A stretch of DNA of 64,000 bases from Eledone cirrhosa. Taxonomy: Eukaryota. The position numbers and the translations under genes were made by a program. The stretch lies in NCBI GenBank assembly GCA_964016885.1, contig OZ024743.1, positions 215,388,001 to 215,452,000 on the forward strand. Reading direction: 5' to 3'. This document shows, in pieces, positions 3,153 to 63,597 of this stretch. Numbering within the stretch: the stretch's first letter is position 1; each line of letters opens with the position of its first letter. The notes beneath the pieces are model-generated. The model did no database searches. It had not been told where the DNA came from and saw only the letters and a list, made by a program, of their open reading frames with translations.

Positions 3153-3228
3153 ACAGATTGACTTTGTTAGTTTCAGAAGAACCCATTAAGGGTGAAAGCA
3201 GCTATTCTTTGCTTAAACTTTAATCTGT
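3153..3228 (+). ncRNA. HHR-like motif with non-canonical core CAGAAGA (second copy ~6393-6468)
   Basis: acagattg..agttt-CAGAAGA-accc attaa gggt-GAAA-gcagc-TA..aaact..taatctgt, followed by AATAAA. Confidence 0.5.
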
Positions 3229-3373
3229 TATTTTAATAAATATTTGCTCTACGGTTCTTATATATTTGATATATATCTATCCTTCTCGAGCACTCTTTGG
3301 ATTTTAGTCTTCAACTTTATTATTATTACTATTGGGCTCCCTCGGTTGAGCACTCTACTGATTTATATTAATC

Positions 3374-6642: not shown

Positions 6643-6828
6643 GGACAGACTGTAATATTATAGTTAGTATACTTCATTCTAGCTAACTAAATTTTCTTTT
6701 GCAATATAAATACAGATATGTTGGCATTTGTGTTTCATCATATATATTAATTTATATTTAAATGTTTTACACGGCTCAGAAATATTTCTTTCTTTGAGCT
6801 AATTTCATTGTAAAAGAGTTCATTACAC

Positions 6829-6832
<4 letters not shown>
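6643..6832 (+). mobile_element. short 3'-terminal fragment of the family D/J tail
   Basis: Homologous to 31609-31790 and 44150-44360 (ttagt…ttcatt…acggctc-gaaat…gagct). Embedded in TA. Confidence 0.65.
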
Positions 6833-18299: not shown

Positions 18300-18750
18300 A
18301 CATGACTGTCTTTTTAACACCCCACTCCTCACTGATTAATCTTGATGTCACGTGATTGATTCTTTTGAATTTGCCACTGACCGGGAAGGTAGTGAAATTT
18401 TCAGTGTCTTGAAATTTAGTCCGCGCTAGCTTTTTTTCCATTCACTGAATTATTTTTGTTTGAGTTCCCTTAGTTCGATTATCGCCTGGGATCTCAGCAG
18501 AGAATTGACTCCCTGATGAAGAAAGGAATCATCCATGGTTTTGAACACTATGTATATCCCCTTTCAGAAACTAATTAGTTGGAGTGAAACTTATATAAGT
18601 AAGTTAATTATTATAATTTTCTTATTTTACGTCTTTCATATAATTGTTCTACATTTTTGTATTGAAACACAAAGTTAGTAAGACAATACCTATATCTTGC
18701 TACCATAAGTATACTTCTGTATAAATATGTTGGTAGATATACTAATTCTT

Positions 18751-19129: not shown

Positions 19130-19800
<671 letters not shown>

Positions 19801-24465: not shown

Positions 24466-24773
24466 CATATACATACACACATACATAGACATACATGTAC
24501 ATACATACTCATACATACATACATACACACACATACATACATATATATATACACACATAGACATATACATACATACACACACAACATACATACACACATA
24601 TATACTCATACATAGAATTAGATATATATTCATACATACATACGCACTTACATATACTCATATATACAAATACATAAGCTCTAGATAGAAGTGGCCACAA
24701 AAATAGATTAGAATATATACCTTCTACTAAAAATACTGAAAGCATACAACCTAATATTACCAACAAACACCAA

Positions 24774-25733
24774 ATGAAAAGTACACACCTAAATGCCACC
24801 CACACTATACCCCAAAATACCAAATCTTCTAATATAAAGTATAGTAACTCTCAAAAAACTACTCATCATACAACTCTAATAAATATTAATAATAAAACTC
24901 CTAATAAAAAGGATAAAACACCTAAATCTACAAATATAACTAAAAATGGTTGTGGTGAGATCATTAACATTAATCCTCCTAGTAAAAATCACGATACAAC
25001 CTATAAAAATAAAAATAATAAAAATAATAAACAACATAGAAACCGTAATAGACGGGTTACTTGGTATAATGCTCCATTTAATTTACAAATTAAGGATAAT
25101 ATTGCTAAAAAATTTTTTTATATCCTAGAGAAAAACTTCCCGCCAAACCACAAATACCATCAAATCTTAAATAGGTCTACAGTTAAATTCTCATACTCTA
25201 CAACAAATAACATAAAACAAAATATAAGTGCCTATAATGCATATAAATGTAAGAAAACCATAAGTATACCACCAGTACATCAAATTAACCATAATATCTC
25301 CTCAAATACAGAATTAACGAAAGGTTGTAACTGTAGAAACAAAGCAAAATGCCCATTAAAAGGGAATTGTCTTGTTAACAACATAGTCTATAAATGTAAT
25401 GTTAAAACTAAAGATTCTATTTGCTCATATATAGGAGCTACCTCTAACAATTTTAAGACAAGGTTTAATACCCACAAGCATAGTTTTAAAAATGCCGCAC
25501 TGGCTAATACAACATCTCTAGCAGAAAAAATCAATAGTTATAAAAATAAGAATATAGAATATGATTTGACCTGGAGTGTGCTCAAAAGAGCCACCCCTTA
25601 TCAAAATAATAGAAATGAATGTAGATTATGTTCCCAAGAACTATTTGAAATAATGAAATCTAAGGATATCCTATTAAATAAACGACAGGAATTAATTATA
25701 TCGTGTAATCATAAACTAAAAAAAAACATTTAA
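24774..25733 (+). CDS. PLE linker + GIY-YIG endonuclease (5'-truncated)
   Basis: RRVTWYNAPF, CNCRNKAKCPLKGNC, IVYKC…SYIGAT, CRLC…LLNKRQE…CNH. Confidence 0.88.
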   Translation: MKSTHLNATHTIPQNTKSSNIKYSNSQKTTHHTTLININNKTPNKKDKTPKSTNITKNGCGEIININPPSKNHDTTYKNKNNKNNKQHRNRNRRVTWYNAPFNLQIKDNIAKKFFYILEKNFPPNHKYHQILNRSTVKFSYSTTNNIKQNISAYNAYKCKKTISIPPVHQINHNISSNTELTKGCNCRNKAKCPLKGNCLVNNIVYKCNVKTKDSICSYIGATSNNFKTRFNTHKHSFKNAALANTTSLAEKINSYKNKNIEYDLTWSVLKRATPYQNNRNECRLCSQELFEIMKSKDILLNKRQELIISCNHKLKKNI

Positions 25734-31180: not shown

Positions 31181-31788
31181 CATTAAAATATATGATAAAC
31201 ACAAAACGTGTTTGCATTGCAACAGTCAGTCAGCTAGTAATGAAATAAACTAATTAAAGTGAATACAATTTGTCTGTCTCGATATAAGTCAATAAAGACA
31301 AGCTTATATTGGCAACTGCCATGATTGCTGGACAGATTTAAATTTCAAAATCCAAACCTGTTCTGTAGACGAATTTGAACCTCGAATGGATTCCTGTTGA
31401 TATGCACAGAAGATTTGGATATTTCACTTTTTATTTCAATTCCATTTCGATTCTCTTTATTTTTTAAATTCACATACCACCATTGCGAAACGGATTTAGG
31501 TTTCGAGGTTCAAATTCGTCTACAGAACAGGTTTGGATTTTGAAATTTAAATCTGTCCAGGAATCATGGCAGTTGCCAATATAAGCTTGTCTTTATTGAC
31601 TTATATCGAGACAGACAAATTGTATTCACTCTAATTAGTTTATTTCATTAATAGCTGACTGTCTGTTGCAATGCAAACACGTTTTGTGTTTATCATATAT
31701 TTTAATGTATTTAACGGCTCGGAAATGCCTCTTTCCTGGAGCTTAATTATAGTAAAGGACTGAGAGCTTATTCTCAAAATATTATATA

Positions 31789-31790
<2 letters not shown>
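31181..31790. mobile_element. family J inverted pair (arms ~205 bp), tail homologous to family D
   Basis: 31181-31386 is the reverse complement of 31501-31708. The + arm carries an extra ~80-nt tail. Confidence 0.8.
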
Positions 31791-32120: not shown

Positions 32121-34336
32121 TCATCATATTAAATCATGGTCACATGCTTTGTTGGAGGAAATAAATCATAATGAATGGCGTTTGAAAAAACCTTGGCCTC
32201 ATCATTACGTTTCATTACGTAATCAAAGAAACACCAAACACTTGAGATGGTGAAAGTGCCCTTCCCTCTAACCCAGAGGTAATTTAGAATAGCCTGAGTT
32301 TAATAAAGAACTAAGGCTATTTGAATATGCTAATGTCGACGATTTTCCTCACGATTTTATATTGCTTCTCATACTCGTGTGATTACCAATAAAAAGGTGA
32401 GTAGATAATGCATTGCTCTATGCATGCCCAAATTACAACAAGCTTATCATTAGCCACAATAATATTTATGAATTGACGTCTAATATATATCGATGTAAGT
32501 CATGATATATCTGCATGCATTATCTCATCTAATTCATCAATTACATACTCCATCAATTGCTTACGCTTCCACCATCTCATTATTACATGTAAATTAATCT
32601 GTGTATATTGAAAACATCTAGCTATACACTTATGTTTATGAAAAAAACAATTACAACTTGTACTTCGAAATCTAAAGATCACCTCTCATTCTCACTTAAA
32701 TTCCACAACCATCATTTACTGTGTACACTGGGTGGATACATTTTCCTTCCTCAGTCTTTCACACATGAAAAATTAATCATCTTGCATTTCGGATTCCATT
32801 CCCTCGCACTTTCCAATATACTATTTTGTTATATCAGCACATGGCCCTCAAAACATGAAGTTTCTGCAAGCTAAGCCTGAACCCGTCCCTATATCATAAT
32901 AGCAGTGAATTGCACACACATCTACACGATATTCTAATTAATAATTCCCTCACACACACAAACACACACGCACACATACACACACACAAACACACACACA
33001 CAAACACACACACACATACACACATACACATATACACACACACACACACTCACACACACAAAAAAACACACACATACATACAAACACAAGCATCTAAAAA
33101 AACACAATGAAAGCCTTGCGTTGTTCTCTATTTATCTGCATATTTAAGAAGATTAGTAGGACTAGAGACTAGAATCAACAGAAACTATACTTTCTTTACT
33201 CTAATGTACTACATAAGAACCTAGCTACGGCGTACTATAATTAAGAAATACAGGCCGTTGTTCATGAGATCGATTTTGAGGACTTGCAGGATATTTGTTA
33301 TGTGGTCCATAGGTGTCTTCAAACCCCTAGAGCAACATTGCAATTCATATTGTAAGGCTTCGGAAGAATTCTCAATAATTTCAATTTTAGCTACGTATAT
33401 TTTCCCTGGCTGGTATTTATTTACACAAGGCTATAGTTATTTTATGTCTCGTGTTGCTCTATTTTATAATTAATCGTGTGCCTACATAGCTTGAAATTAT
33501 GCATTAAGTATGATACGTATGAATCATGGATATGTCCAACATCTAAATACACTGCGCTTATGATGCTACAGGCTTATCTGACGTAGATGCGAATAGACTT
33601 AGCTATCCCATATCAATTCGATCAAAAACATGAAGCGCTGGAAAGTCATATTTTCTTTTGATATTCTTCACAATAATTTTCGTGAAGTAAACCTAGACAA
33701 TATAATATAAAACATGATATAAACATGCACACACACACACACAATCACATTACACACCACGCGCGCGCAGACAAACACGTTCGTATACATATTACCAAAC
33801 AAACATACACCCAGAAATTTATATACAGAATTATATACTACATATATATATATATATATATATTGGTAAACGGAATAGAAAATGCTGACAAATTGTTCAC
33901 AGTTGAAAAATGGTTTAATTAGGAATAAAAGAGTATTAGTGATTGTATGGGTTAGTATTCAGTTGTGGTTTTAAGTTTTTAAGTTTATACCGGTTGCGCA
34001 TTTCTAAATGCTTTTCAAAAATAATTTTGAGATAGAGTGTCCGTGCTGTTTGCTCGGATCTGATTAGTTTTGGGAATTCTACCTGTTTTTATGTTAAAAG
34101 TGGCTCCAGCGTTATTTTTGTGTTGCAAAAATGCTTGTGGTCAAAACAATTTTGATTGGTCGGTAGAGGTCATGTGAATGTAAAAAGTTGATTTTGCGCC
34201 AAGACTGTTTTTATGTTAAAAAAGTGGCTCCAGCAAAAATTATTGGTCAAAACAATTTTGATTGGTCGGTAGAGGTCATGTGGATAAAAAATTGATTTTG
34301 CGCCAAGATTGAGAAATGACTCTTTCACAACAAATA

Positions 34337-34395
<59 letters not shown>

Positions 34396-34487
34396 AGTAG
34401 TAGTAGTAATAATAATAATAATAATAATAAGGTGTTCGATGCTGCGACAATGGCCAGCAGCGATGTGTGTCAAATGGCTATTAAGAT

Positions 34488-34523
<36 letters not shown>

Positions 34524-34831
34524 CAGAGTCATTCGAAGGTCAAAAGATATTTTTCAGCTTTTGTCTTATACGGAGAAGTGCGTGTGTGTGTGTGTATAAG
34601 TCTCTTTGTATGTTGATGTACGCGTGTGTATGTGTTTGTGTATATATGTGTGTGCGTGTGTGTGTGTGTGTGTGTGTGGGTGGACCAGTATTTTTTTCCC
34701 CCTGGTAAAATGGTGTACATTATTTGATTTTTTCAGTGAAATCGGTTCTCTTAATAGAACATCAAAAATCTTAACAATAAAAGGTGTGAAATGATATTCA
34801 CTATATATATATATACACACACATACATATT

Positions 34832-34886
<55 letters not shown>

Positions 34887-35028
34887 TACATACATATATA
34901 TGCACATATATTTTTTTGTATTGCACCATAGAGCATGTGTGTTTACGTGTGTCATTGTGTTTATATGTGGGTAGAGATGTGTGCTGATGTAGGTATGTAT
35001 GTTGACGTGTGTATGTTGTGGGTTCGTG

Positions 35029-36660
35029 TTAGGGAGAAGTGTTTAGACGGGGTCCGTATTTGTTAATGAAGTAAGATTCCTTGCTGATGCGCTGGGTGTA
35101 GGTGGCATTATCTTTAAATTTGTAGAGGCGAAAGATTCTGAAGTTGGGATAATTTTGGGCGGCACAGGTATCAATGTGTTCACTCAGTGGTATTTTCCTG
35201 TATTCCCGTATTTTAATTTGGGATCTATGGACAGTCATGCGTTGGCGGAGGCTGTTTTTGGTCTGGCCTATGTATTGTTCTCGACAACCTGAACAAGTTA
35301 ATACATATATTAGATTTTCCGATGCACATGTGAAATTGTGTTTTACTATAAAACGTTGTCCATCTTTGAAATAGAATTCCGAAACCTCTATTAGGTTGAT
35401 GCAAATGCCACAGTTGGGTCTATCGCATTTTTCTACTGTGGGTTTCGTTGTTGAGGTTGGCCGTACTTTGGCATGTGTTAAGATGTTTTTCATTGACTTG
35501 GATTGTCTTTTGCTCTTTATGATATCGTGTGTTCGTAGAATATGGTTCATTCTATGGTCCTTTTTCAATACAGGGATGTTCTGGAGGATGGTGTCAAAGG
35601 CCTCATTGTTGAGGGGGTTGTGTGTGGAGATGTATGGAAGAGCTTTTAGTTTTGGTTGATTTACTTTAGGGTGTCTAAGGTCCTGGGTACTGAGTTTTAG
35701 GGCACGTTGGATTCCATTGTCAATTAGTGATGCAGGGTAGTCCCTGCCTATGAGTGTGTCCTTTAGTTCTTGTAGCCGTAAGTAGCAGATGTTTTTATTG
35801 GAGACTATAGTACAGATTCTCTTGGCTAAGTTGTAGGGAATATTAATTTTAACGTGTCTAGGGTGGCAAGAGTTGAAGGGGAGATATTGCTTGGAGTCTG
35901 TGGGCTTGTAGTATATGTCTGTTTCTATTTTTTTGTTATGGATCTTAATGAGGATGTCGAGGAAGGGGAGTTGTTGATGGCTGTATTCCATCGTGAAGTT
36001 AATATTTGTGTTGAGCCCATTTATAAGGGTGTGAAATTCTTTAAGTTTTTCGATGTTTTCGTGCCAAAGGATGAAGCAGTCATCTAGATATCGCTTCCAG
36101 TTCCTTTCAATGTGTAAGTTGAGGGTGTTTCCAAATTTGTTTAGGACTTTATTGTAGAGGGTGATTTCCAGTTATCCCATGACTAGGTTGGCATAAGTAG
36201 GGGCTGTTTTCGTTCCCATAGCGGTCCCAGATTTCTGCCTGTAGGGTTTGTTATTGAAAACGAAGTAATTGTTCTCCAAGATAAATTTGAGTCCCTCTAT
36301 CACGAATTCTTTTTTGATGCGTTGTGGGAGTTCATTGTGGAAATTATCCAGCCAGAATTGGATAGCTTCTATTCCTAGGTTGTGGGGGATGTTGGAGTAT
36401 AGGTTGACTACATCGAACGTCACTAGTAGGGTTTGTTCAGAAAGTGGCATATTAGGGAGGTGATTGAGCATATCTTGGTCGTCCCTTATATAGCTTTTGA
36501 TGTGCTTGAGGAAGGGTTTGAGAAGGGTATCAATGAAGTTGCTAAGACGGTGCGTTTCGCAAGCGGGGCCTGCTATTATAGGTCTTAATTTGAGATCATT
36601 GGGTGAGGGGACATTGATGACTATGTCTGTGGCTTCCTTGCATGCCTTACTGATTGATTC
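35029..36660 (-). pseudogene. Neptune RT-GIY-YIG ORF with one in-frame TAA at 36172-36174
   Basis: FDVVNLY, GTAMGTKTAPTYANLVMG*, WKRYLDDC, CxxxxCxxC linker, LIYVLTCSGCREQYIGQT. Both ORF pieces are in the same frame. Confidence 0.9.
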
Positions 36661-36843
36661 GCTTTAACAAATACGGACCCCGTCTAAACACTTCTCCCTA
36701 AGACGAACCCACAACATACACACGTCAACATACATACCTACATCAGCACACATCTCTACCCACATATAAACACAATGACACACGTAAACACACATGCTCT
36801 ATGGTGCAATACAAAAAAATATATGTGCATATATATGTATGTA

Positions 36844-36884
<41 letters not shown>

Positions 36885-37034
36885 AATATGTATGTGTGTA
36901 TATATATATATAGTGAATATCATTTCACACCTTTTATTGTTAAGATTGTTGATGTTCTATTAAGAGAACCGATTTTACTGAAAACATCAAATAATGTACA
37001 CCATTTTACCAGGGGGAAAAAAATACTGGTCCAT

Positions 37035-37077
<43 letters not shown>

Positions 37078-37331
37078 AACACATACACACGCGTACATCA
37101 ACATACAAAGAGACTTATACACACACACACACGCACTTCTCCGTATAAGACAAAAGCTGAAAAATATCTTTTGACCTTCGAATGACTCTGCTATATACAC
37201 ACACACACACACACATACACACACACACTTATCTTAATAGCCATTTCACACATCGCTGCTGGCCATTGTCGCAGCATCGAACACATTATTATTATTATTA
37301 TTACTACTACTACTACATACACACACACACA

Positions 37332-37405
<74 letters not shown>

Positions 37406-37436
37406 CATATTTGTTGTGAAAGAGTCATTTCTCAAT

Positions 37437-37660
37437 CTTGGCGCAAAATCAATTTTTTATCCACATGACCTCTACCGACCAATCAAAATTGTTTTGACCA
37501 ATAATTTTTGCTGGAGCCACTTTTTTAACATAAAAACAGTCTTGGCGCAAAATCAACTTTTTACATTCACATGACCTCTACCGACCAATCAAAATTGTTT
37601 TGACCACAAGCATTTTTGCAACACAAAAATAACGCTGGAGCCACTTTTAACATAAAAACA
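37437..37660 (+). promoter_or_regulatory. 2 x 104-bp tandem module with GGCGCAAAA, CACATGAC, CCAAT and GAGCCACTTT motifs in the Neptune pLTR
   Basis: Motifs seen directly, in the same order as 62635-63220. Function is inferred. Confidence 0.4.
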
Positions 37661-37722
37661 GGTAGAATTCCCAAAACTAATCAGATCAGAGCAAACAGCA
37701 CGGACACACTATCTCAAAATTA

Positions 37723-37759
37723 TTTTTGAAAAGCATTTAGAAATGCGCAACCGGTAAAA
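37723..37759 (+). ncRNA. degenerate U3-A8 HHR-like motif (mirror near 33987-34022)
   Basis: ttt-TTGAAAA-gcat ttagaa atgc-GCAAC-c-GGT-aaaa. Confidence 0.4.
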
Positions 37760-37916
37760 ACTTAAAAACTTAAAACCACAACTGAATACTAACCCATACA
37801 ATCACTAATACTCTTTTATTCCTAATTAAACCATTTTTCAACTGTGAACGATTTGTCAGCATTTTCTATTCCGTTTACCAATATATAATAACTTGTGTGT
37901 TACACCTCTATTCTTT

Positions 37917-37977
<61 letters not shown>

Positions 37978-37981
<4 letters not shown>

Positions 37982-38510
37982 GTTATATAGTAAGGTGTAT
38001 TATTGGTTATGTCAAACGGTCCAATACATTTTTTGTTACCATATTAAGTTCTCGACGCTTTTGTATATCTCCAATTCCATTTAAGGGAACAGCTAGATGA
38101 TGTAAAACGGAATATTTGTATCAAAATAAAGATCCCCAGGCAAGGTCAAATTCCAATCATTTAATCACGAGACCTGTTTCAATAAGAGATAGATTAATCG
38201 TGTAGCTATGATCGATTATCACTGATCTCGTCAGGTGAAAATGAAATGTCTACAAATCCTTGATATGAGGGAAAAAATTAATCATCTTGCATTTCGGATT
38301 CCATTCCATTCCCATACGAGGGAATAATCGCTGAGTGAACATCGGTAATTTTCTCCCTCATATGAAGGATTTGTAGACAATTGATTTTCACCTGACGAGA
38401 TCAGTGATAATCGATCATGGTTACACGAACAATCTATCTCTTATTGAAACATGTCTCGTGATTAAAACGATTGGAGATCCATACCATGCCTTCGGATCTT
38501 TATTTTGATA
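37978..38510. mobile_element. family M inverted pair with an HHR on each arm (38165-38238 -, 38388-38461 +)
   Basis: tcac-CTGACGA-…-GAAAC-at-GTC-tc-gtga. Minus arm carries an extra ~140-nt tail. Confidence 0.8.
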
Positions 38511-38549
38511 TATATATATATATATATATATGTATATTTATATGTATAT

Positions 38550-41195
38550 AAGAATGGGCCCGAACTATGCCAACCTTTTTGTTGGCCATGTTGAGGCCCA
38601 AATCTTTGCCCAGTACACCGGCCCCACGCCCGAACTGTACGGTCGTTACATTGACGACTGTATCGGAGCCACGACCCTCACCCGAGTACAGCTCGACTCC
38701 TTTCTCTCCTTCTTCTGCTCCTTCCACCCCTCCCTCCACTTCACCACCTCTATCTCCACCACCCACGTCCACTTCTTAGACATCTCCGTCGCCTTCGACC
38801 CCTCCCACCACTCACACGTCACCTCCGCCTTCTTCAAACCCACCGACTCCCACTCTTACCTCGACTTCACCTCTGCCCACCCCACCCACACTAAACTCTC
38901 CATTCCCTACTCCCATCTTCTCAGGATCCGCCGCCTCTGTAGCCGTGATGCTGACTTCGAGTCCCAGGCCCTTTCCCTAGTCAGCCATTTCCTCCGCAGA
39001 GGTTACCCCCCCCCCCCTCTCTCGTCTACACCGCTCTCACCCGCGCCCGTGCTATCCCCTGCTCCACCACCCTCACCCCACGCCTCCGCACACCCACCCA
39101 CCGTCTCCCCTTCCCCATCACCTACCGCCCCTCCACCGCACCATCCGCCGCCTCTTCCGACGCCTCCAGTCCGACCCCTCCACCTCCCACATCTTCCCAT
39201 CCCACCACTCCCCTCCTTCAAACGCGCACGCAATCTCCGCACCCTCCTCGGCCACAGCTCCCTACCGCCCAACCCACGCTCCGGTTCCCCCCCCCGGTTC
39301 CTTCCCCTGTTCTAGGCCCCGCTGCAACACCTGTCCCCACATCACCAACACCACCACCTTCCAGGGTCCCAACGGCCACTCTCTCTCGGTCCGGCATGCC
39401 TTCCGCTGCACCTCCTCCAACCTAGTCTACGGACTTCGTTGCACGGAGTGCAGCGCGACTTATGTCGGACAGACGGGACGTTGCCTGGCGGACAGAGTCA
39501 CGGAGCACCTCCGGGATATTCGTCTCGGGGGCAGTTCCCCCATCGCCCGCCACTTTGGTGGCCCTGGACACTCCGCACGCCATCTCACAGTCTGTGGCCT
39601 ACTCCAGTGCTACGGAACACCCGCCCATCGCCTTACGGTCGAACAACGCACTATCTTCATCTTACAGACCCACATTCCCCCCGGCCTGAACTCCCCACCC
39701 TTATTCCTTTAGCGTTCGACCGCCCCCTCCCCCCACACTTATCCCCCACTAACACCACTAACACACCCTTCCTTTTCACCGCCCACCCCACACTAACAAT
39801 ACTAACACCTCCACTCCACCCCTCATCTGAACACCCTTCCCCAACTAACATACTAACATCCCTTCCCTCCCCTCTTATCCTCCTCCCCCCTCCTTATCAT
39901 ACGCACACACGCACCCACTTACACCACCCACCCCACACGCAACTAACATCACTAACACCCCCCAACCCCACGCACACGTACCCACACACCCTCGTACACC
40001 ACCAACTCTACACACCCTACCACCACTAACCCCCACTCACACCTGCATTCCACCCCTCCCCACCTCCCGTATACTAACACCCACTAACACCTCTTCACCA
40101 AACTACACACACACCAGTACACCACACTCCCTCCATAGAACCACACACACCCTTCTCTCCCCGCTCCACACTCACTCATCTCACTAACACCCCTACTAAT
40201 ACACACACACACACACACACACACACCCTCCTCACTCCAACTCTCACACCTACCCATCCTCGACTCCCTACCATTCCGCCGACTGCTGCTATGCCCTTCC
40301 CATCACCTCTCAGCACCAACTGACCACAGCACTCCCACTGCTGACCACTTACTGTTGCGCGCGCACCCCACATCTCTCCTCTTCCGACCACCGCTTCTTG
40401 GATTACCCACACGCGAAATTGACTTCTAACCAAAATCTCCAAACATCCGTGGAACTTACCGACTTTTCAACCATCCTCTTGCACCATCACCTATATAACT
40501 CACCCATACACACACCCCCCAATAAATTTTTTTTATCCAAACGCCACCCACACCCACAACACGCTTAAACCACACACACGTGCTTCCCACCACATATTTA
40601 CACCCTCAGCCTCCTGATTTTTCTCTCCCCATCCCCCTATCCACACACGCACAGACACTCCGACCCACAAAAACACCCCCCACACACACCTTCCTGAACA
40701 TGCAACCCCGTTTTTCCCCCAACCCTCACTTTCACATACACACACACACACACACACACGCACACCTAACCACACACACCACCTTCAGCCCTCTCCGCTC
40801 GGACACCCCGTCTCCCTCTCCCCAATCCACCCGCCACCACCCCTACTCACCCCACAGCCTTCCACCACCTGTTTACCCCCCTTTTAATTTCAGTTTATTT
40901 TGATCATGCCTTTATTTTTAAATTTTCTCATTCCTTGTATTTTGATCATGCTTTATTTTTATTTATTATATATTTTGTCTTTATTTGTTAATTTTTCATT
41001 CGCACCGTTTCCTTTCGCTATATGTCTCTCCACCACTCCCCTACACACCTTTTGAACTCTGTTCCCACACACTTCTCACCTGAAGAAGGGCTTATGCCCG
41101 AAACGTCGTCCCCTACCTACCCCCCACTCTCCTGAACGTGAATTTAATAAACATTTATTGTACTGCCTCTCTGTTCTGTCCCTGTTCAGTTTTTC

Positions 41196-41198
<3 letters not shown>
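38550..41198 (+). mobile_element. C-rich Neptune-like PLE, 5'-truncated (disrupted ORF ~38553-39711)
   Basis: MGPNYANLFVG, RYIDDC, KPTDSHSYL, PCSRPRCNTC, LVYGLRCTECSATYVGQT; frameshifts in C-runs. Confidence 0.9.
41076..41110 (+). ncRNA. minimal hammerhead ribozyme
   Basis: ac-CTGAAGA-a gggc ttat gccc-GAAACGTC-gt, with AATAAA about 35 nt downstream. Confidence 0.85.
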
Positions 41199-41236
<38 letters not shown>

Positions 41237-41239
<3 letters not shown>

Positions 41240-43677
41240 AAAGTTTTATTTAAGATTGTTGGGTTACAACGAGTAAATATTTTATAACTGATATAAAAGC
41301 ACTCAACAGTTTCTGGAGTAGGTTTACGATATTAAACAAATGGAAACTATATTTATAAAACCATATTTATTTCGTTATATATATTTCTGGGATATCATAT
41401 TAAAAATATGTTATGCCTTCCTCAGACAAAATACAATACATAAGCTGTTTTATAAATAATTAGTGACATAACTTGTAATAATGCAATTTCCTTTTAAAAA
41501 GTTGATTTGGTAGTGAAACTGTTATGATAGTTATATAGAAAGAAAACGAAGATGAGAAGAAGAAGATGAAGAGATGTATGTAAATAAAAAAGAAGAAGAT
41601 GAAGAGATGTATGTAAAGAGAAAACAGATGTATGTAAAGAAAAACAACGGAGCGAGATAGAGAGACAAGGATAGAGAGAAATACATTGATGGTGAAAAAA
41701 AAAACATAGTAGGCTGCTTTTTGACAGATGATCATCGTATATGTGAGAAGTTAAGGGAGGGATACAGTTAGATTAGTGTATAGGAGAAAAAGAAAGAAAG
41801 ATGATATATTTAAAATATATTAAAAATGTCTCATCCATTTGAATTATCAATTTTTATGAATTAGGCATTATAATGTAAATATCAGTATTCATGAATGAGA
41901 CACATATCTATAATGTGTAAAAAAAAAAAGACCACATGCTCAGTTTAAAAATTCTTAGGTCTATAAGCAAAATCTGAGACAAAACTTCAAAACATAAGTA
42001 TATATGCATTCTCGTGAAAAATAAGAAAAGAGAAGGTTATCTCAAATTCAAGTTGATAAATATAGACGCACATGTGAACCTAGGTGATACGCTGCACTGA
42101 TTCTTATATTTCATGAAAAACTTCAATGTGTCAGAAAAGAAAAACTTCAATGCGTTAGAAAAGATTCCACCCTACATACATTTACATACATATATACATA
42201 TATATAGACACAAAACATATAAGATATACATTAACATCCAAATCTAAAAATTCATCCAATCTAAAAATTCCCTTAATTTACGAACCAATTTATTCAGCTG
42301 TTGCAGACATAGATTGAACTCAACATTTAAATATAAATATAAATTTAAAATGTAGTATAAAATGTCGTATATTTACTTAAGGTATTTGACTATTTGTGAT
42401 ACTTGGCGATAAATCTTTCGATTCCTTCAATTTTTTTTAAAACCTTTCAATTTTTTTTATAAAACCTTTCCGCATGAATATATAATTAATGAGATTAAAT
42501 AAACTACCCTAAAATTGGCGTTGTTCCCAATCTTTTGAATACATTTTTAAGCTGGTAAAACTTCTATAATAAATATAAGAGCATTTGTAGAATAAGTTTT
42601 GAATGATTTCTGATAGATAAGGCTTGGTGAGCAATGTTGGTCTTGTTTCCTTTTGACTCTGATTCTATGACCGATATGCGTGGCATACTATGTTCTCTTG
42701 CGTCCCTAGATACTCTGTGGAGTGACGAAGATATTCTTGGCGTTTTTAATTTTAATATTGATATCTGTTGTCTACTCTATGCTTGATCGATGATTATTTT
42801 GGATGTTAATGTATATCTTATATGTTTTGTGTCTATATATATGTATATATGTATGTAAATGTATGTAGGGTGGAATCTTCTCTAACGCATTGAAGTTTTT
42901 CTTTTCTGACACATTGAAGTTTTTCATGAAATATAAGAATCAGTGCAGCGTATCACCTAGGTTCACATGTGCGTCTATATTTATCAACTTGAATTTGAGA
43001 TAACCTTCTCTTTTCTCATTTTTCACGAGAATGCATATATACTTATGTTTGAAGTTTTGTCTCAGATTTTGCTTATAGACCTAAGAATTTTTAAACTGAG
43101 CATGTGGTCATTTTTTTACACATTATAGATATGTGTCACATTCATGAATACTGATATTTACATTATAATGCCTAATTCATAAAAATTGATAATTCAAATG
43201 GATGAGACATTTTTAATATATTTTAAATATATCATCTTTCTTTCTTTTTCTCCTATACACTAATCTAACTGTATCCCTTCCCTTAACCTCTCACATATAC
43301 GATGATCATCTGTCAAAAAGCAGCCTACTATGTTTTTTTTTTCACCATCAATGTATTTCTCTCTATCCTTGTCTCTCTATCTCGCTCCGTTGTTTTTCTT
43401 TACATACATCTCTTTTCTCTTTACATACATCTCTTCATCTTCTTCTTCTCATCTTCGTTTTCTTTCTATATAACTATCATAACAGTTTCACTACCAAATC
43501 AACTTTTTAAAAGGAAGTTGCATTATTACAAGGTATGTCACTAATTATTTATAAAACAGCTTATGTATTGTATTTTGTCTGAGGAAGGCATAACATATTT
43601 TTAATATGATATCCCAGAAATATATATAACGAAATAAATATGGTTTTATAAATATAGTTTCCATTTGTTTAATATCG

Positions 43678-43678
<1 letters not shown>
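41237..43678. mobile_element. family F long inverted pair (arms ~0.9 kb, loop ~550 bp), non-coding, HHR on each arm (41368-41433 -, 43571-43636 +)
   Basis: Mirror pseudo-ORFs 41460-41735(-) and 43302-43544(+). tattttgt-CTGAGGA-agg..cc a-GAAA-tatata-TA-acgaaata. Confidence 0.85.
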
Positions 43679-43761
<83 letters not shown>

Positions 43762-43766
<5 letters not shown>

Positions 43767-44766
43767 GGTATATATTGAGTTAGGAACTCAAAATAGTCTT
43801 TTACAACACAAGAGCTCTAAGAAAGAGATATTTCTGAGCCGTATATTATAATAGAATATAAAAGAAAAACGAACACAGATATATAGATATATGTGTTCAA
43901 ATCGTAAGGGACCTGATTCGCTAAGGTGAAAAGAATACTAACTATAGACAATTGGGTTCGGTTGTCTCAATTTAAGAAAAAATTAAGAAAATAAATACAA
44001 ACCGGAATTGTGGTAACTACCAATAACCCAGACAACTTGTTGTTGTTGAACAAAGTTAATTGTGAATAGAAATACCAGTCCAAGCTCATCAGTGTGTGAT
44101 GAATTACCACAATTCCGGTTTGTATTTATTTTCTTAATTTTTTCTTAAATTCAGACAAGCGAAGCCAATAATCTATAGTTAGTATTCTTTTCACCTTAGC
44201 GAATCAGGTCCCTTATGATTTGAACACATATATCTATATATCTATGTTCGTTTTTCTTTTATATTCTATTATAATATAGGGCTCATAAATATCTCCTTCT
44301 TAGAGCTATTTTGTTGTAAGAGACTATTTTGAATTCCTAACTCAATATATACCTTTAATATATTAGGCTCCGTTAATTTGTTGAGCTATTTCAAATGTCG
44401 AGTAAACCTTGCTGCTATTTTTAGTGGTGTGGGTTTGTGAGACTCATAAGGATGTCATGTGCGGTGTTTTATATTTTATATATGGCATACATAGATGTCA
44501 CTAGGATACTAATTCATCAACCACTGATGAGCTTCGATTGGTATTTCTATCCACAATTAACTTTGCGAAACAACACGTTGTCTGGGTGATTGGTAGTTAC
44601 CACAATTCCGGTTTGTATTTATTTTCTTAATTTTTTCTTAACTTGAGACAAGCTAACCCAATTGTCTATAGTTAGTATTATTTTCACCTTAGCGAATCAG
44701 GTCCCTTACGATTTGAACACGTATATGTATATATCTGTGTTCGTTTTTCTCTTATATTCTATTATA

Positions 44767-44770
<4 letters not shown>
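43762..44770. mobile_element. family D non-coding HHR element: inverted arm + 1.35 tandem monomers (period 493 nt)
   Basis: ttaccacaattccgg at 44104 and 44597. Minus arm 43762-44100. Confidence 0.85.
44521..44585 (+). ncRNA. type I hammerhead ribozyme (degenerate mirror 44028-44094)
   Basis: cca-CTGATGA-gc…gc-GAAA-caac ac gttg-TC-tgg. Confidence 0.8.
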
Positions 44771-45365
<595 letters not shown>

Positions 45366-46932: not shown

Positions 46933-47957
46933 GGACGTAAAATAAGAAAATTATAAAATTAACTTACTTACTAAAATTCCACTCCCAACTAGAATGGAAT
47001 AAATATACTTTCCGAAGAAAATATGGAGAAGCATTTCGTCGTCAGGGAAGTCTATTCTCAGCTAAGTATCCAGGCAAAGCGTGGACTCTGGAAACTTATA
47101 CAAAAATAATTCAGTGCATAGAAAATAGCAAAGCGTGGACTGAATTCCTAGCCATTGAGAAAATCACTGCCTACTGCGTCGGTGGCAAATTCAAAAGGAA
47201 TCAATCACGTGACATCGAGGTCAATCAGTGGAAAGTGGTTTGTTAAGAAGACAGCGGCCTGCCTGCTACCATAGCAGCAGTCTTGGCCAATATTGCTCGA
47301 CAAATAATTTGGAGATAATTATAAAGAATTAATATCTAGTAACATATATACACATACAGATGCATATCAATACTAGCAAATATATAGGTTTTGTCTTAGT
47401 AACTTTGTGGTTCAATGCATGGGGTTCCAGAACAATAATATGAGAGACGTAAAATAAGAAAATTATAAAATTAACTTACTTACTAAAATTTCACTCCCAA
47501 CTAATTAGTTTCTGAAATGGAATAAATATACTTTCCGAAGAAAACATAGAGAAGCATTTCGTCGTCAGGGAAGTCTATTCTCAGCTAAGTATCCAGGCAA
47601 AGCGTGGACTCTGGAAACTTATACAAAAATAATTCAGTGGATAGAAAATATTAAAGCGTGGACTGGATTCCTAGCCATTGAGAAAATCACTGCCTACTGC
47701 GTCGGTGGCAAATTCAAAAAGAATCAATCACGTGACATCGAGGTCAATCAGTGGAAAGTGGTTTTAGTAAGTAAGTTAGTAAGTAAGTTAGTAAGTAAGT
47801 TAATTTTATAATTTTCTTATTTTACGTCTCTCATATTATTGTTCTGCAACCCCATGCATTGAACCACAAAGTTACTAAGACAAAACCTATATATTTGCTA
47901 GCATTGATATGCATCTTTATGTATATATATATATGTTACTAGATATTAATTATTTAT
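46929..47957. mobile_element. family E non-coding HHR element: ~1.6 tandem monomers (-, period 523 nt) + inverted tail (47762-47957 +)
   Basis: gtcagggaag at 47041 and 47564. TA flanks. Confidence 0.87.
47493..47574 (-). ncRNA. type I hammerhead ribozyme (copy near 46981-47051 has lost GAAAC)
   Basis: cttcc-CTGACGA-c gaaatg…catttc a-GAAAC-taatta-GTT-gggag. Confidence 0.8.
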
Positions 47958-48125
47958 ATATATATATACATGAAATCTAATTGTACAAAAGTATCTCACA
48001 CGTAAACAAATATACAGTGCCCAAAATCATCTTGAACGTACATAAATCAACAGATTGTCTATGTTTATGTTTACATCTATATAAATCATATACTTTTTTC
48101 TAATTTCCATCTTTATCTTCTTCAG

Positions 48126-48797: not shown

Positions 48798-50164
48798 GCG
48801 CGTGTGTGTGTGTGTGCTTTCTTATTCATCTAAAATTACTGATTTATATCCCCGCTAAAGAAATCATTGATATTCTCATATTTCTAACCAATATTCCACT
48901 GATATGTTTTTCTACATTTTATATCGGTTTGGCACAACTAATTTATATAAATTTAACATGTGTAATTTATTCTCATGAGTTTTGAAATATATTCATGTAT
49001 ACTTCGGTCATACATTTACGGAGATCTATGAAAGATGTTAACCTTCATGAAATATTTTATTTTCTACCGAAACTTCCATTCAACGCTCCGCTGTGGCAGG
49101 GTGCTCTTTTTCAGCCATTCAATTGTTACCTGACTAAGATTTTATGTTTGAAAGTAAGCTAATTCTCGTCGGCAATGCAATCAACTGTGCTATAGTAGGC
49201 TCAAAAACGTGCTTTACAAATCACATGTTGGTTACATGCGCACTTGTTTAATAGAAAATATTGTCATTTATTCGAAATAGAGCCGAAGAAATTATGCTAA
49301 ATTTGGAACATTTTTACCATAAATGGCTGGAATATTAATAAAATGCTTTGAATATATGACTAGCCCTGCTTATTTATCTTGCATATTCATTTGATTGAAA
49401 TGAACAATCTATAAAGAACTATTTCAAAACAGATTCGGAAATATAATACATAAGTAATTATCATGTTTAATATTCGGGATCTATTCTATGCGAAATTCAA
49501 GGGCGTGTTTGATATTCATAATGTCTGCCGTTCTAAAATGTATCAGTAATAAATATTAGTGCATTTTTCATGTCACAACAACATTCAGACATGGTACAAG
49601 CCGCAATATTATAGAGTTATTTTGTTGTATTTACGTTTATGTTTATCCCCATGATACATATTTCAATGACGTCACGAAGAAAACATTCAAGTTGTAGTCA
49701 TCGGCGAAATATCTATCATGGAGTTAACAATTAACCTAAACACAACTGCATAATAGCTACGATTTATTTAATATTGTTTGAGGAAATATATTTTTCGGAT
49801 ATTCTTTCTTTTATTTACTCTCATTTATCCCCCCCCCCCCACACTTTCAAACCTTTATAAAGCTTTTCCTAATATATCAAGAGTTAAATTAATTTATATC
49901 AACATTGTATTCGATTGTTCTTCCTTATTGAATTGTCTCGTATATGTAAAATAGATATATCTATATATGTTTATGGGTGTGTTATTATGTTATGTCAAAT
50001 GTATATATATATATAATATATGTAGTAAGAAACACAGTAAATCGTGTGTCTAATAATATGAGGGTTGAAGAACCACATTTGTTTGAAATATTTAACCATG
50101 ATGCAGACAGAATGATAAAATAAAATAAAATTATATTATACAAACCACCTCAATAACAAGTATA

Positions 50165-50246
50165 TCTCTCGGACAGATTAGGGATTAATCTGTTTCGCCC
50201 TGAGTGTGTTTGTAACAGATAATCCACGGGCATCATCAGCGAGAGA
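50165..50246 (-). ncRNA. full type I hammerhead ribozyme
   Basis: tctctcg-CTGATGA-t gccc…gggc-GAAA-cagatta atccc taatctg-TC-cgagaga. Confidence 0.9.
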
Positions 50247-50638
50247 ATCTGATTAAATGCGACAAACACCTAGTACCAACGTTCACACAGAAAAATGAAT
50301 TCATCACCTCGTGTGCCGTAAGTCAAAAGTGGTGTGAGTGTATTGGTTAGAAATAACAGTCCAACACACGCAACTTAATAAGCGCACCTCTTGAGGGGGC
50401 CGAAATATAAATGAAAGTTAGAGTTAATAACTCATACTGAAACCCTGTAATCAACAAGCCTCAAAGTATAAATACTGAGCATTATAATAATATATGTAGT
50501 AAGAAACACAGTAAATCGTGTGTCTAATATTACGCGGGTTGAAAAGCCACATTTGTTTGAAATATTTAACCATGAAGCAGACAGAATGATAAAATAAAAT
50601 AAAATTATATTATACAAACCGCCTCAATAACAATTATA

Positions 50639-50720
50639 TCTCTCGGACAGATTAGGGATTAATCTGTTTCGCCCTGAGTGTGTTTGTAACAGATAATCCA
50701 CGAGCATCATCAGCGAGAGA
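50639..50720 (-). ncRNA. full type I hammerhead ribozyme (second tandem copy)
   Basis: As 50165-50246, with one C-to-T change in stem II giving a G-U pair. Confidence 0.9.
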
Positions 50721-50846
50721 ATCTGATTAATATTAGACACACGATTTACTGTGTTTCTTACTACTTATATTATTATAATGCTCAGTATTTATACTTTGAG
50801 ATTGTTGATTACAGGGTTTCAGTATGAGTTATTAACTCTAACTTTC

Positions 50847-58534: not shown

Positions 58535-61500
58535 ATGCCACCAAAGTCTCAACATAACAACAACTCACTGAACCAGGACATCTTAAATGAACTCAAAGAG
58601 ATTTCCTCAAAACGCTCAATTTTGACCAACAAAGTGGACCAAATACACATCTATAAAAAAGGACCCCACGAAGAAACAGAAAATACCTAAGAGACAAATA
58701 TTACTCCAGCATTAACTAAACTAATCGAAACCATTGAAACAGCAATGCTCCAAAAGCTGGAACAGCCATTAGAACCCAGTCTACGAGATGTCCTCTCAGT
58801 GAAAAGCACCCTAATCAATATATGGACTCAAAATCACACAGCCCGCAAATTCGCCTTTTGGAATCTCCTAAAAAATAATGGCAAGACAGACATATATGAA
58901 AAGTGGATAAAATCTACCCCAATCATCCTCCCCAAAAAACTCCAGATAAAACCCATCTCGTATGATCCACAAAACCAACAAAGACTTAGGGAAAAGATGG
59001 CGTTAGAAACATTTAAAATAGAAATAGAACTGTTACGAAGAAAACTCCAACGAAGAAAAATTCAAGTCACTCGACCAACAGATGGTAACAGATATTTCAA
59101 GGCACTCTGAAAGCCTACTCTATGGAAAAACCTTAAAACTTAAAACTTTGGAAAGAAAACTGTGAGGATGAAGAACTAACATCCCTCCAGCGATGGTAAA
59201 AAAGCGCCACCTGGTTCAACAACTACGAAATGGATTTCAAAAATGAACAACATACAGATAACCCATTTTTAAAACAAACTAAAACTCACACACCTAATGC
59301 ACAACAAATAACAAAAAAAGTAACAAAACATGCACAACAAATAACAAAAACAAGTAACAAAACGTCCAACATACCCCCAGCAAAACTATAACGATAATCC
59401 CAGAACCCATAGACAAAACTATAACCCTACTAACAAAAACCGAAGATCCTCCAACACAAGTCAGGACTCGATCCGCAGATCACAACCCACGCAAAACCTA
59501 TTCCAAAATCGTAGACCCCTGCCCACACAGAGCCTATTCCAAAATCGTAGATCCCAACCCACACAAAGGAACAAATTCTACAACCCGGAATATCAATAAA
59601 CCGAGCCTTAATACCTCCGAAACTTCTATACAAGACCACACAACAACAAGGGAAATGCCCTTAGATATAATAATACCATTGAAAAAACATTCCAGAAAAA
59701 TCATTTTTAGACCAAGGCTACAGGACCCACGAAACCCGGTGGCACAAACCGATTTTGAAAAACCAAAAATAATCAACCTTTCAAATACAAACCTCTCAGC
59801 ACAACAAGTAAAAATTCTATCCAAAGGACTGAAATTCACACCAACACCACAATACTTTAACCTCAATGAGATAAATGACGATATCTCACACTTCTGTAGA
59901 AAATTACGTCTCACAGAGGAATTCTTTGATAAGGAGAATAACGACCAATAAATTGTACGGAATAAAAACAGCTACAACCCAACAAAAGGTACAAACAGAG
60001 TTCTGGACACATTTTCTGACCACATAGCCACTTTCCCATACAATGAACTACCGCAACCTAAACCCAAACCCAACACGAGTCGAAAGGAATGGGAGATTAT
60101 CCATGAACTAAAAAAACAATACGGACATTATAACTAAGGAAGAGGACAAGGGAAGTACTGTTGTCATTATGGATGCTGAAAAATATAAAATGCTATGCTC
60201 TCTCTCTTACAAAATACTAATTACTATGCAAGAGTAAACAACTACCAGCAATCAAAAACAATGATCAGATTAAACACGCTGATTTGTCGATACCAGGAAG
60301 ACTTAACTAAAAAGGAACGCGATTATTTAACACATTTTGAATACAAAACCAGCAACCTTTACGGACTTCCGAAGATCCACAAGTGTAAAATAATTAACGA
60401 TGCCTGTAAACAATCTGTCTCAACCTGCGTGAACACACAATACCCCACATACCTTAAATTAAGACCAATTGTAGCAGGCCCACAATGTGAAACACACAGA
60501 CTGAGCAACTTTATAGACATACTACTAAAACCAATTCTCAAACACATACCAAGCATTGTAAGAGATGATCTGGACCTCTTAAACCACCTCCCCAAACATG
60601 TCAACAACGATACTATTATTGTGTCTTTCGATGTAGTGAATCTCTACACAACGATCCCACACCAATACGGACTACACATAATAGGATTCTGGCTAGAGAA
60701 ATATCCCAATGAGATATCTGACAGAATAGAAAAAAAAGCTTCACTTCCGAGGGATTAAAATTTATCTTACAGAACAACTTTTTTTATTTCGATGGCAGTA
60801 CTTACAAGCAAATATCTGAGACTGCGATGGGTACAAAAGCCGCTCCGACTTATGCCAACTTAGTCATGGCATACTTAGAAGTCCAGATTTATGAACAGTC
60901 CAAATCAAAATACGGATTGAAATTCCACAAATATTTATCAGAGAATTGGAAACGCTACTTGGATGATTGTCTCATTCTTTGGCCCCACACATTCGACCAA
61001 CTGAATGCTTTCACAAATTAAATAAACGGCATCAATTACCACATCCAATTTACAATGGAATACAGCCATTTCTGGAAATCTTAATCTTAAAAAAAGACAC
61101 AAATATTGAAACTGGCATACACTACACACCAACAGATTCCAAACAATACATGCTATTCACCTCCAACCATCCAAAGCACACGAAGACGAACATTCCTTTT
61201 AACCTAGCAAGAAGAATTTGCACAATTGTCTCCAATTATGAAACGCGAAATAAAAGACTTCAAGAATTAAAGGAAATTCTCTCGAAAGACAGTACCCACC
61301 ATTACTAATAAATAATGGAATAGAAAGTAATAGGCATTGATGAATTACGAAAACAGAAACAAATTCAATGTACGTCCAATATTCTATCATATATCTCAAT
61401 ACACAGCCCAAGAAATGCGGAAGCTTACAACACTATTCACAAGAACATCCCACTACTGAGACAAGATCCAAGAATGAAAAATAGCCTTTGAAACACACAA

Positions 61501-61990
61501 AATAATCAAAAGCAAAAGACAACCGAAATCACTGAAAACATTACACACCAATGCCAAATTACCTGCGACAAACCCACAACCAACTGTCAAACAATGTGGT
61601 TGCTCTAATTGTGTAACCTTCACTTACCTCATTGAAGGCAACACGTATACATTTGAATCAGGAAAATATTTTGCTGGAAAAATTCACTTCACTTGCTCAT
61701 CAAAAAATCTATGTTATGCCATTGAATGTAAAGGATGCAATGAAGATTATATAGGACAAACTAAACTCACACTCAGAAATAGAATGACAGTTCATCGCCA
61801 ACAAATACGAGATCCAACCACGAGACAGATACCACTAAGCGCACATCTAGACATTTGCGCAAGTAATAAGACACCCACATTCCAAGTCTTCCCAATTTAC
61901 CTTTGCGCTGACAATACAACAGAACAAATACGAATAAATAAGGAATATATGTTTATTCAAAAATATAGACCAGCATTAAATATGGTTTAA
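58535..61990 (+). pseudogene. Neptune RT-GIY-YIG ORF with multiple frameshifts and stops
   Basis: IINLS…LSKGLKFTPTP, YGLPKIHK, LRPIVAG, SFDVVNLY, MGTKAAPTYAN, RYLDDC, YIGQT. Confidence 0.9.
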
Positions 61991-62634
61991 TATACATTAT
62001 GTCAACACCAGAACATTCTAACCATCCAAACAGACACACCCACACATAACACCTTCTATTTTAGAAAATAAAAACCCGAACTAAATGAACCTTAACATAC
62101 GTTTGCGCTGACAATACAACAGAACAAATACGAATAAGTAAGGACAATATGTTCATTCAAAAATATTCCTAATGACGGAATCATTTTCCTAAACACACAC
62201 ACACACACACACACAAAATATATATTCTCTTCATCTGAACATGCTAACCATACTCCCACACACACATAACACCCCACACACAAACAACTCCCTCCCCCAT
62301 TTCTGCTAATAGAATCATTTTCCTACACACACACACACAATATATATATATTCTCTCCATCTTAACATACTCCCACACACACACACATAACACCCATATA
62401 CACAGACGCACAACTCCCTCCCCCATTTCTACCAATAGAATCATCTTCCTATACACGCATACACACACACACACACACATACAATTAAACATACATATGT
62501 CTACTTCCTTTATTTCAATAGAAAATCGGAACTCTGACACCCCAGCGAACTAGCCATATTCACTGAACCAGAACAATTCTCCCATCCCATTTCTCTTGAC
62601 CATTAACTTTTGCTTGTCATAATATTCTCTAAAT

Positions 62635-63220
62635 GGCTACAAAAGTAATTCCCAAATACGGGCGCGGAACTTGTTCACGTGACAGTCATGATTTCATTTA
62701 TAACCAATCAAATTGCATTTTTAAAAAAAAAGCCTTCGGGAGCCACTTTTTTATTGTCATAAAATTCTGTAAAAGGCTACAAAATAAATTCCCAAATACG
62801 GGCGCGAAATTTTAATGAACTTTTTCACGTGACTGTGGTAATTTCATTTATAACCAATCACATTACATTTTAAAAAAAAAGCCTTCGTGAGCCACTTTTT
62901 TTATTTTTATAAAATTCTGTAAAAGGCTACAAAATAAATTCTCAAATACGGACACGAAATTTTAATGAACTTGTTCACGCGACAGCCATAATTTCATTTA
63001 TAACCAATAAAATTACATTTAAATAAAAAAAAAGCCTTCGTGAGCCCCTTTTTATAAGTAAAAAGTAATTCAAATTCTCATATACGAAAAAACAACATGA
63101 GCCCCCCCCCCCCCCCCTTGTTTGAAGAACTTTGTAACACGAACTGGCGCGAAATTTATTATACTTATTGAACAACCAATTAAATTACTTCTGTAAAAAC
63201 CTGGCGTTTCGAGCCACTTT
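62635..63220 (+). repeat. 3-4 x ~145-bp tandem repeat with GGCGCGAAA, CACGTGAC, CCAAT and GAGCCACTTT motifs
   Basis: ggctacaaaa at 62635, 62776 and 62925. Confidence 0.8.
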
Positions 63221-63293
63221 TATCCATATTAAACAAGTAACATTCAAAGACCAACCAGATGTGAGAAAAACCACAGACCCTCCATCTCAACGC

Positions 63294-63332
63294 TACTTTT
63301 GAAAAGCAGAAAAACTGCGAAACCGTTAAAGG
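63294..63332 (+). ncRNA. minimal HHR variant with U3-A8 core (UUGAAAA)
   Basis: ctt-TTGAAAA-gcag aaaaa ctgc-GAAAC-c-GTT-aaag, followed by AATAAA. Confidence 0.7.
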
Positions 63333-63597
63333 AACCAAATAAACATATATATTTTTTTAAAAATAAGACTCCAGTTGCATTGTCGATTTCATCTTTTTTT
63401 CCTTATACTTTCGCTCGTGTCGGACACCTCGGTTATTCTTCATTTTGTAAAAAAACCTCACTTTCTAATATATATATATCTATCTATATATATAATATAT
63501 ATTATACATCTATCTATATATATATATATATAATATATATTATATATCTATCTACCTATATATATATAATATATATTATATATCTATCTATCTATAA

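Follow-up and report, generated by a model that had tools for sequence, protein, structure and literature searches.

The locus detailed in Table 1, which lies within the window (i.e., the whole stretch of 64,000 nucleotides of Eledone cirrhosa DNA that was analysed), is probably one insertion of a multicopy, ORF-less hammerhead repeat of 493 nt. This repeat is likely a non-autonomous Penelope-like element (PLE) of the Hydra clade, for which an RT-endonuclease of that clade probably acted in trans, copying it into nicked (TA)n. From left to right, the locus consists of (TA)n, an inverted copy, the direct series tail-spacer-ribozyme-tail and again (TA)n. The period is given by two direct repeats of 175 nt (44104-44278 and 44597-44771), which are 93% alike and lie 493 nt apart; the unit has a GC content of 32% and no ORF, the longest ATG frame on the circularised unit being 45 codons. 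Similarity of the tail was found to 6643-6832 (z of 12-16 over about 150 nt) and to 31609-31790 (z of 7-11 over about 80-105 nt), each as compared with 300 shuffles. In the period, the lack of an ORF, the homology of the tail and the hammerhead with a GUC site, the preliminary description of this DNA was borne out. Its account of the locus stands for the direct unit on the plus strand, and is to be completed by a third, inverted copy with a broken ribozyme (43762-44106), which it did not mention. The long terminus of this inverted copy abuts the left (TA)n, and the extension of about 85 nt is found only at this left end of the locus, the right end being devoid of it. Tail 1 contains a mutated version of hairpin A (44281-44306). 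Over the 175 nt which they share, the three tails possess 1, 6 and 6 private changes, hence the insertion is not recent. Apart from the locus, the stretches 31195-31790 and 6643-6832 are tail-only relatives, the former of which possesses an inverted copy, whereby hairpin A lies between its short end and its long end. A tblastx comparison of the spacer with the window gave a best outside match of E 1.3.

Table 1. Features of the 493-nt hammerhead repeat locus and its flanks (positions within the window)
Feature	Position	Strand	Remarks
(TA)n array, left flank	43677..43761	.	likely insertion target
Inverted 5'-truncated copy	43762..44106	-	from unit position 44510 through ribozyme and full tail to long terminus
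Hairpin A	43814..43839	-	GCTC, inner stem of five pairs, bulge of 2 nt, GAGC; located 2 nt past the short terminus
Hammerhead remnant	44023..44100	-	CUGAUGA kept (44092); C-G-A before stem III changed
Head-to-head inversion junction	44104..44106	.	3-nt microhomology
Tail 1	44104..44362	+	175-nt core and, from short to long terminus, an extension of ~85 nt (44279-44362)
Non-coding spacer	44363..44509	+	~147 nt; single copy within the window, multicopy in public runs
Hairpin B	44367..44386	+	GCTC..TTGAGC; 3 nt after long terminus
Type I hammerhead motif, intact core	44516..44590	+	predicted cleavage after 44582
Tail 2	44597..44771	+	ends at short terminus, abutting right (TA)n
(TA)n array, right flank	44772..44834	.	

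The hammerhead of the direct unit is built from CUGAUGA at 44524, GAAA at 44567 and GUC with C17 at 44582 and, combining the CUGANGA and GAAA core with an NUH site and three stems, of which stem I is open, is of type I. Seven of the eight possible pairs are formed in stem I, whereby the mismatch at 44520 is absent in relatives, which carry a C at this position that closes the stem (depth 5205/5237 and 6572/6836). Stem III possesses five pairs round a loop of 2 nt (alternatively four pairs round 4 nt), and the stem II region comprises 36 nt with only two basal pairs, followed by a long insert. In stem III, relatives show variants whose loops are longer, and one replacement of A-U by G-C, as identified by eye from loose ends with an agreement of 0.63-0.70 and from a single X4 contig; the ribozyme stems are hence kept or covarying in the family. 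By a hammerhead descriptor, the window contains four sites with an exact core, as compared with none in each of ten Markov-resampled sequences. Rfam returned no hammerhead match at E<=10 for 43762-44770 and none for the whole window among the 150 of 272 matches listed, all of which were noise of microsatellite type. With -5.0 kcal/mol, the active fold of this copy lies 4.5 kcal/mol above the lowest-energy fold (-9.5 kcal/mol). Self-cleavage is predicted from the motif. An intact hammerhead core is needed for activity, and the inverted remnant with its altered C-G-A is therefore predicted to be inactive. As a consequence of one ribozyme being direct and the other inverted and broken, the locus has no two consecutive ribozyme-bearing units, and with one intact core it cannot by itself release unit-length RNA.

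Whether other copies of the unit exist was revealed by four public DNA runs (X1-X4, out of seven available, none of which is of RNA, of which X1 and X2 represent one sample), which were aligned at 85% likeness on exactly one period (44278-44770), the short end 44771 thus being at the edge of the alignment reference. The runs contain 0.05-0.23 of the words, and since this is 0.23 at most and a likeness of 99% is reached by only 112 of the 2105 X1 contigs, they may derive from another individual or species. Matching contigs numbered 2105, 2264 and 40 in three of the runs and matching reads 2364 in the remaining one; of 29 bins, 29, 29, 22 and 29 were covered, and a variant at 44365 is shared by 54 and 59 contigs. 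The unit, its spacer included, is multicopy in these runs. Among the 24 of 4488 pieces listed, at least two bridge tail and spacer by a 31-letter rule (X1 record 1, X4 record 19), and in X2 record 9 the spacer is connected via the ribozyme to the tail over 44385-44658; no contig among those listed from the four runs spans the whole unit. Exact-pattern scans of metagenome contigs yielded 0 and 0 matches. The preliminary description had proposed a non-autonomous hammerhead family of about 0.5 kb and had named a spacer that is single-copy, or part of a longer coding element, as the outcome that would tell against it. The spacer (44363-44510) is single within the window and multicopy in the four runs, and with other copies joining tail to spacer and spacer to ribozyme and tail the proposed family is supported. 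Behind 44363, loose ends of TA were found in 20, 16 and 4 contigs and 238 reads; copies of the family repeatedly end at 44362/3, as does the inverted copy at 43762.

The coverage of the unit is uneven. Summed contig depth in X1/X2, which does not represent copy number, falls 10-30-fold from 14-25 thousand over 44363-44430 to 0.4-1.4 thousand over 44448-44498, and at 44443 a commoner subfamily stops aligning (13 and 12 contigs and 130 reads depart here), with 30 nt visible beyond this point. Moreover, one contig of 278 nt aligns over only 101 nt. These observations speak for a reading in which the tail, together with ~80 nt at the start of the spacer, forms the termini of a PLE that is longer and perhaps autonomous. 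The 493-nt unit would then be a one-off or minor internal deletion product and not a family spreading by itself. This explanation is considered rather improbable, as the 30 loose letters at 44443, when compared by eye, resemble the window's own continuation with an insertion of about 5 nt, as the low part is covered by 5-10 contigs with common substitutions, as the spacer, ribozyme and tail are linked in X2 record 9 and as two other ORF-less units of about 0.5 kb in the window follow the same plan.

Next to the multicopy unit, the inversion characterizes the locus. Its arms of 260 nt and 203 nt are 95-96% identical, and these could be terminal inverted repeats of a DNA-level repeat (i.e., a foldback, MITE-like or satellite unit) in which the ribozyme is a passenger. 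However, the unit positions at which the two arms end differ by 85 nt, and an arm contains a whole ribozyme copy, which is the inverted-copy pattern described for PLEs (PMC8557442). The inversion points also vary from contig to contig: 9 of the 15 joints listed from the runs (10 others being beyond these) change strand, at differing places and, for 8 of these 9, in one contig per run, and thus inversion with variable breakpoints appears normal in the family. A repeat of DNA-level origin is therefore regarded as very improbable. At the locus, a partial tandem (pLTR) is found next to an inverted copy truncated at its 5' end, and only one end carries the extension; this combination is the described PLE layout (PMC8557442). 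The Hydra clade of PLEs targets TA, bears ribozymes and is defined by the motifs DKT, CxCX5C, CxxC and CxH (PMC8557442). Its traits found at the locus are the (TA)n flanks and a canonical ribozyme near the 3' end, whereby stem III resembles that of the Hydra ribozymes given in File S2 of the same work. A Hydra RT-EN ORF (RWK, DKT, CxCX5C) is absent from the 493-nt unit, which is hence linked to the clade by cis-signals only, as a derivative. Between the unit and the UTRs of the window's Hydra-type elements no alignment was obtained (z<=2.2), the hairpin motif alone being in common. Taken together, there is good reason to regard the locus as a true if partly decayed member of a multicopy family of non-autonomous PLEs of retrozyme type, which probably depends on Hydra enzymes.

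The window contains several PLE ORFs. A Hydra-type PLE occupies 1628-6566 in a partial tandem of 3.25 kb and possesses a frameshifted ORF (3362-5504). The motifs DKT, CxCX5C, CxxC and CxH are found in the element at 3327-6566, on the basis of which, by motif and not by tree, the element may be assigned to the Hydra clade; a Naiad identity of the ORF was considered and is ruled out by its Hydra-type motifs, and Pfam gave no family for it. At about 3166-3226 this element shows a ribozyme-like fold, with CAGAAGA replacing CUGANGA in both copies. A second Hydra-type remnant (24678-25733) is 43% identical over 228 aa, and a short 3'-end fragment of the element 1628-6566 (44835-44980, 88-91% alike, with a small inversion of its own) lies in the TA array right of the 493-nt locus, followed by a further repeat at 45107-45221 with kin at 19138 and 58117. 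At 38152-38475, an inverted pair of ribozyme-like CUGACGA motifs on opposite strands (38234, 38392) shows a one-end extension of about 150 nt and no GCTC hairpin. Three decayed PLEs with C-terminal GIY-YIG domains (33872-37925, 38509-41200 and 58691-63400), which may be Neptune-like by their motifs, complete the inventory; the first of these has inverted ends of 451 nt and a one-sided tail of about 40 nt.

The hairpins A and B are located 86 nt apart, and the outer ends of the element lie 2 and 3 nt before them; the fold of 43762-43850 has a z of -3.7. The exact GCTC..GAGC hairpin pattern, which was derived from four of its own matched sites (the match at 44367 being outside that set), occurs eight times in the window as compared with 0.46 expected matches, and a looser descriptor gave 14 matches as compared with 6.85 by chance. 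With termini obtained automatically from paralogue pairs, a hairpin lies within -3 to +10 nt at 4 of 10 termini and at 37 of 20000 random positions. This count becomes 6 of 10 once two ends of the 523-nt family described below are placed by eye, passing a single mismatch, whereby one of these two ends has the compensatory GTTC/GAAC form. Both ends of the 474-nt family possess degenerate hairpin forms only, which the positional test missed, and among the ten termini two ends of other window families are without hairpin. This hairpin is also found 3 nt past the end of the Hydra-type PLE in the window. Inspection by eye of the published Hydra consensi (File S7 of PMC8557442) identified the exact GCTC-stem-NN-GAGC form at the terminus of three out of six, namely Hydra-2_Amil from coral and Hydra-1_Ajap and Hydra-2_Ajap from sea cucumber, with Hydra-1_Ajap carrying it twice at a distance of 61 nt. 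A variant hairpin is present in Hydra-1_Crog, and the remaining two (Hydra-1_Amil and Hydra-1_Obim) showed no such hairpin in this inspection. A three-hairpin structure common to all extensions was considered as well and rejected, as only one of nine folded stretches had a z below -2. In a literature search outside subscription journals and Repbase, no paper was found on non-autonomous Hydra-clade elements or on such a hairpin and its rule for the termini. Tentatively, and with somewhat less than an even chance of being right, it is suggested that the bulged hairpin GCTC-stem-NN-GAGC (including its compensatory GTTC/GAAC form) sets the RT start of the Hydra clade, that its twin copy gives two ends and that unrelated-looking hammerhead RNAs of about 0.5 kb, possibly circular, ride Hydra enzymes as SINE-like passengers.

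The reaction model suggested for the insertion assumes that the unit keeps the Hydra cis-signals (i.e., ribozyme, tail and terminal hairpins), with a short spacer replacing the ORF. By analogy with the anole PLE, the Hydra RT-EN would bind the bulged GCTC..GAGC hairpin and begin reverse transcription from nicked (TA)n just 5' of it, so that two hairpins 86 nt apart would yield a short and a long end. Both target strands would serve as primers, one per hairpin, and the cDNAs thus formed, of 668 nt and about 345 nt, would be joined head to head via the 3-nt microhomology. For the purified anole PLE protein, it was reported that it cuts AT-rich DNA and extends both strands, with ribozyme cleavage being dispensable, and that its cDNA begins at two internal sites bounding the tail (PMC11167929). 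Against the model speaks that the RT start reported for the anole PLE is an AC-rich stem-loop and not the GCTC..GAGC hairpin (PMC11167929). The direct copy of 668 nt exceeds a single unit in length and extends across the cleavage site, so that it would have been copied from an uncleaved multimer, a re-ligated circle or the product of a template jump.

These templates lead to the question of a true retrozyme cycle, in which tandem loci would be transcribed, paired hammerheads would cut out monomers of about 493 nt and the ligated circles would serve as template, being read for more than one round and thus giving rise to partial tandems. Such a cycle is compatible with the Hydra-PLE reading, to which it adds a circular intermediate. 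The circularly permuted layout, with a copy longer than the unit, and the retention of the ribozyme stems in relatives are in line with it, and monomeric circles were shown for the retrozymes of coral, mussel and axolotl (PMC7229834). Further, the direct copy starts 14 nt past the predicted cleavage site, across which the depth rises about 6-fold in X1 and X2; however, this step coincides with the clipping of a stem III loop variant. Against the cycle also speak the single intact-core ribozyme at the locus and the circular, rod-like fold of the unit, which is unremarkable (z of -1.3, 60 shuffles), and, from published work, the identification of uncleaved RNA as the main substrate of the anole PLE (PMC11167929) and the lack of cleavage in eight of nine frog retrozymes tested (10.64898/2026.07.22.740005). 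On balance, a true retrozyme cycle is possible yet unlikely, and the copying of the 493-nt unit in trans by a Hydra enzyme is kept as the preferred reading.

Two further ORF-less units in the window share the plan of the 493-nt unit, with the long end being on the inverted copy in each. The first, of 474 nt (50020-50840, minus strand), resides in (TA)n and comprises two tandem intact-core hammerheads (50713 and 50239, with stems of 7/4/8 pairs) and an inverted tail copy; its stem II region of 36 nt is as long as that of the 493-nt unit, and it may be taken as the window's best candidate for a released monomer or circle. The second, of 523 nt, is a family found at 46939-47958 and 18306-18750 with two degenerate ribozymes, an inverted copy (47788-47958) and terminal hairpins that include the compensatory GTTC/GAAC form. 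The 493-nt unit does not align to either of these (z<=1.5), with the exception of its ribozyme versus the 523-nt unit (z of 3.4), and hence holds as a separate family. The preliminary description had gone further in calling it independent, and this part stands only in so far as alignment to the 474-nt and 523-nt units is lacking: architecture and terminal hairpin are common to all three, and common ancestry or a common parent clade therefore explains them as well as independence does. The convergence on about 0.5 kb which it also proposed would concern just these three sizes.

Animal retrozymes as passengers of PLEs have already been argued for in print. With regard to the enzyme that moves them, the RNA signal that is read and the reason for the optional PLE tail, the 493-nt family supplies a substrate along with a candidate for the enzyme clade and a start signal predicted at two positions, all of them accessible to the in vitro assay already published for PLEs. 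If the hairpin signal holds true, TA-targeted insertion of PLEs would have a cis-signal that is minimal and transplantable, and animal retrozymes would be tied to a named enzyme clade. The element itself is thus of a known kind, and the twin-hairpin rule for its two ends is the part worth testing.

Among known systems, animal non-LTR retrozymes were described by Cervera and de la Pena 2020 (PMC7229834) and were argued to be non-autonomous PLE derivatives by Li, Clavereau and Pollet 2026 (10.64898/2026.07.22.740005), a preprint in the text of which vertebrates, insects and a coral are the only groups named. PLE repeats with ribozymes, among them closely spaced pairs on opposite strands, are likewise documented (PMC4209133). 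Like the animal retrozymes, the 493-nt unit is a multicopy, non-coding repeat that is low in GC, measures a few hundred nt and contains a type I hammerhead. It exceeds the RNAs of about 170-400 nt given in PMC7229834 and falls, as do the units of 474 and 523 nt, into the range of 51-972 bp given in 10.64898/2026.07.22.740005. Unlike them, it is known here from DNA alone and from a locus with PLE-type inversion, TA targeting and two termini and no two consecutive ribozyme units. With the Hydra-clade PLEs of Craig et al. 2021 (PMC8557442) it shares (TA)n targets, a partial tandem with inverted copy, a type I ribozyme with a stem III of 4-5 pairs and a tiny loop and, as judged by eye from File S7, the GCTC..GAGC hairpin at the termini. 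It differs from them in the missing RT-EN ORF, in a stem II region of 36 nt with two basal pairs, in having no alignable parent in the window and in its extension of about 85 nt, which is 30-40 nt in these elements (PMC8557442). Poseidon PAc of anole (Frangieh et al. 2024, PMC11167929) likewise has an optional tail bounded by two internal RT starts, cuts and extends both strands and uses AT-rich targets, but is autonomous and of another clade, and its starts belong to one AC-rich stem-loop and lie 30-40 nt apart, whereas here each end precedes a hairpin of its own, 86 nt apart. Finally, non-autonomous Chlamys elements such as MRC1 (PMC8557442) resemble the 493-nt unit as ORF-less PLE derivatives with pLTRs and head-to-tail insertions, and differ from it in being from green algae, in belonging to a clade whose EN is N-terminal and in being, for the most part, without canonical ribozymes.
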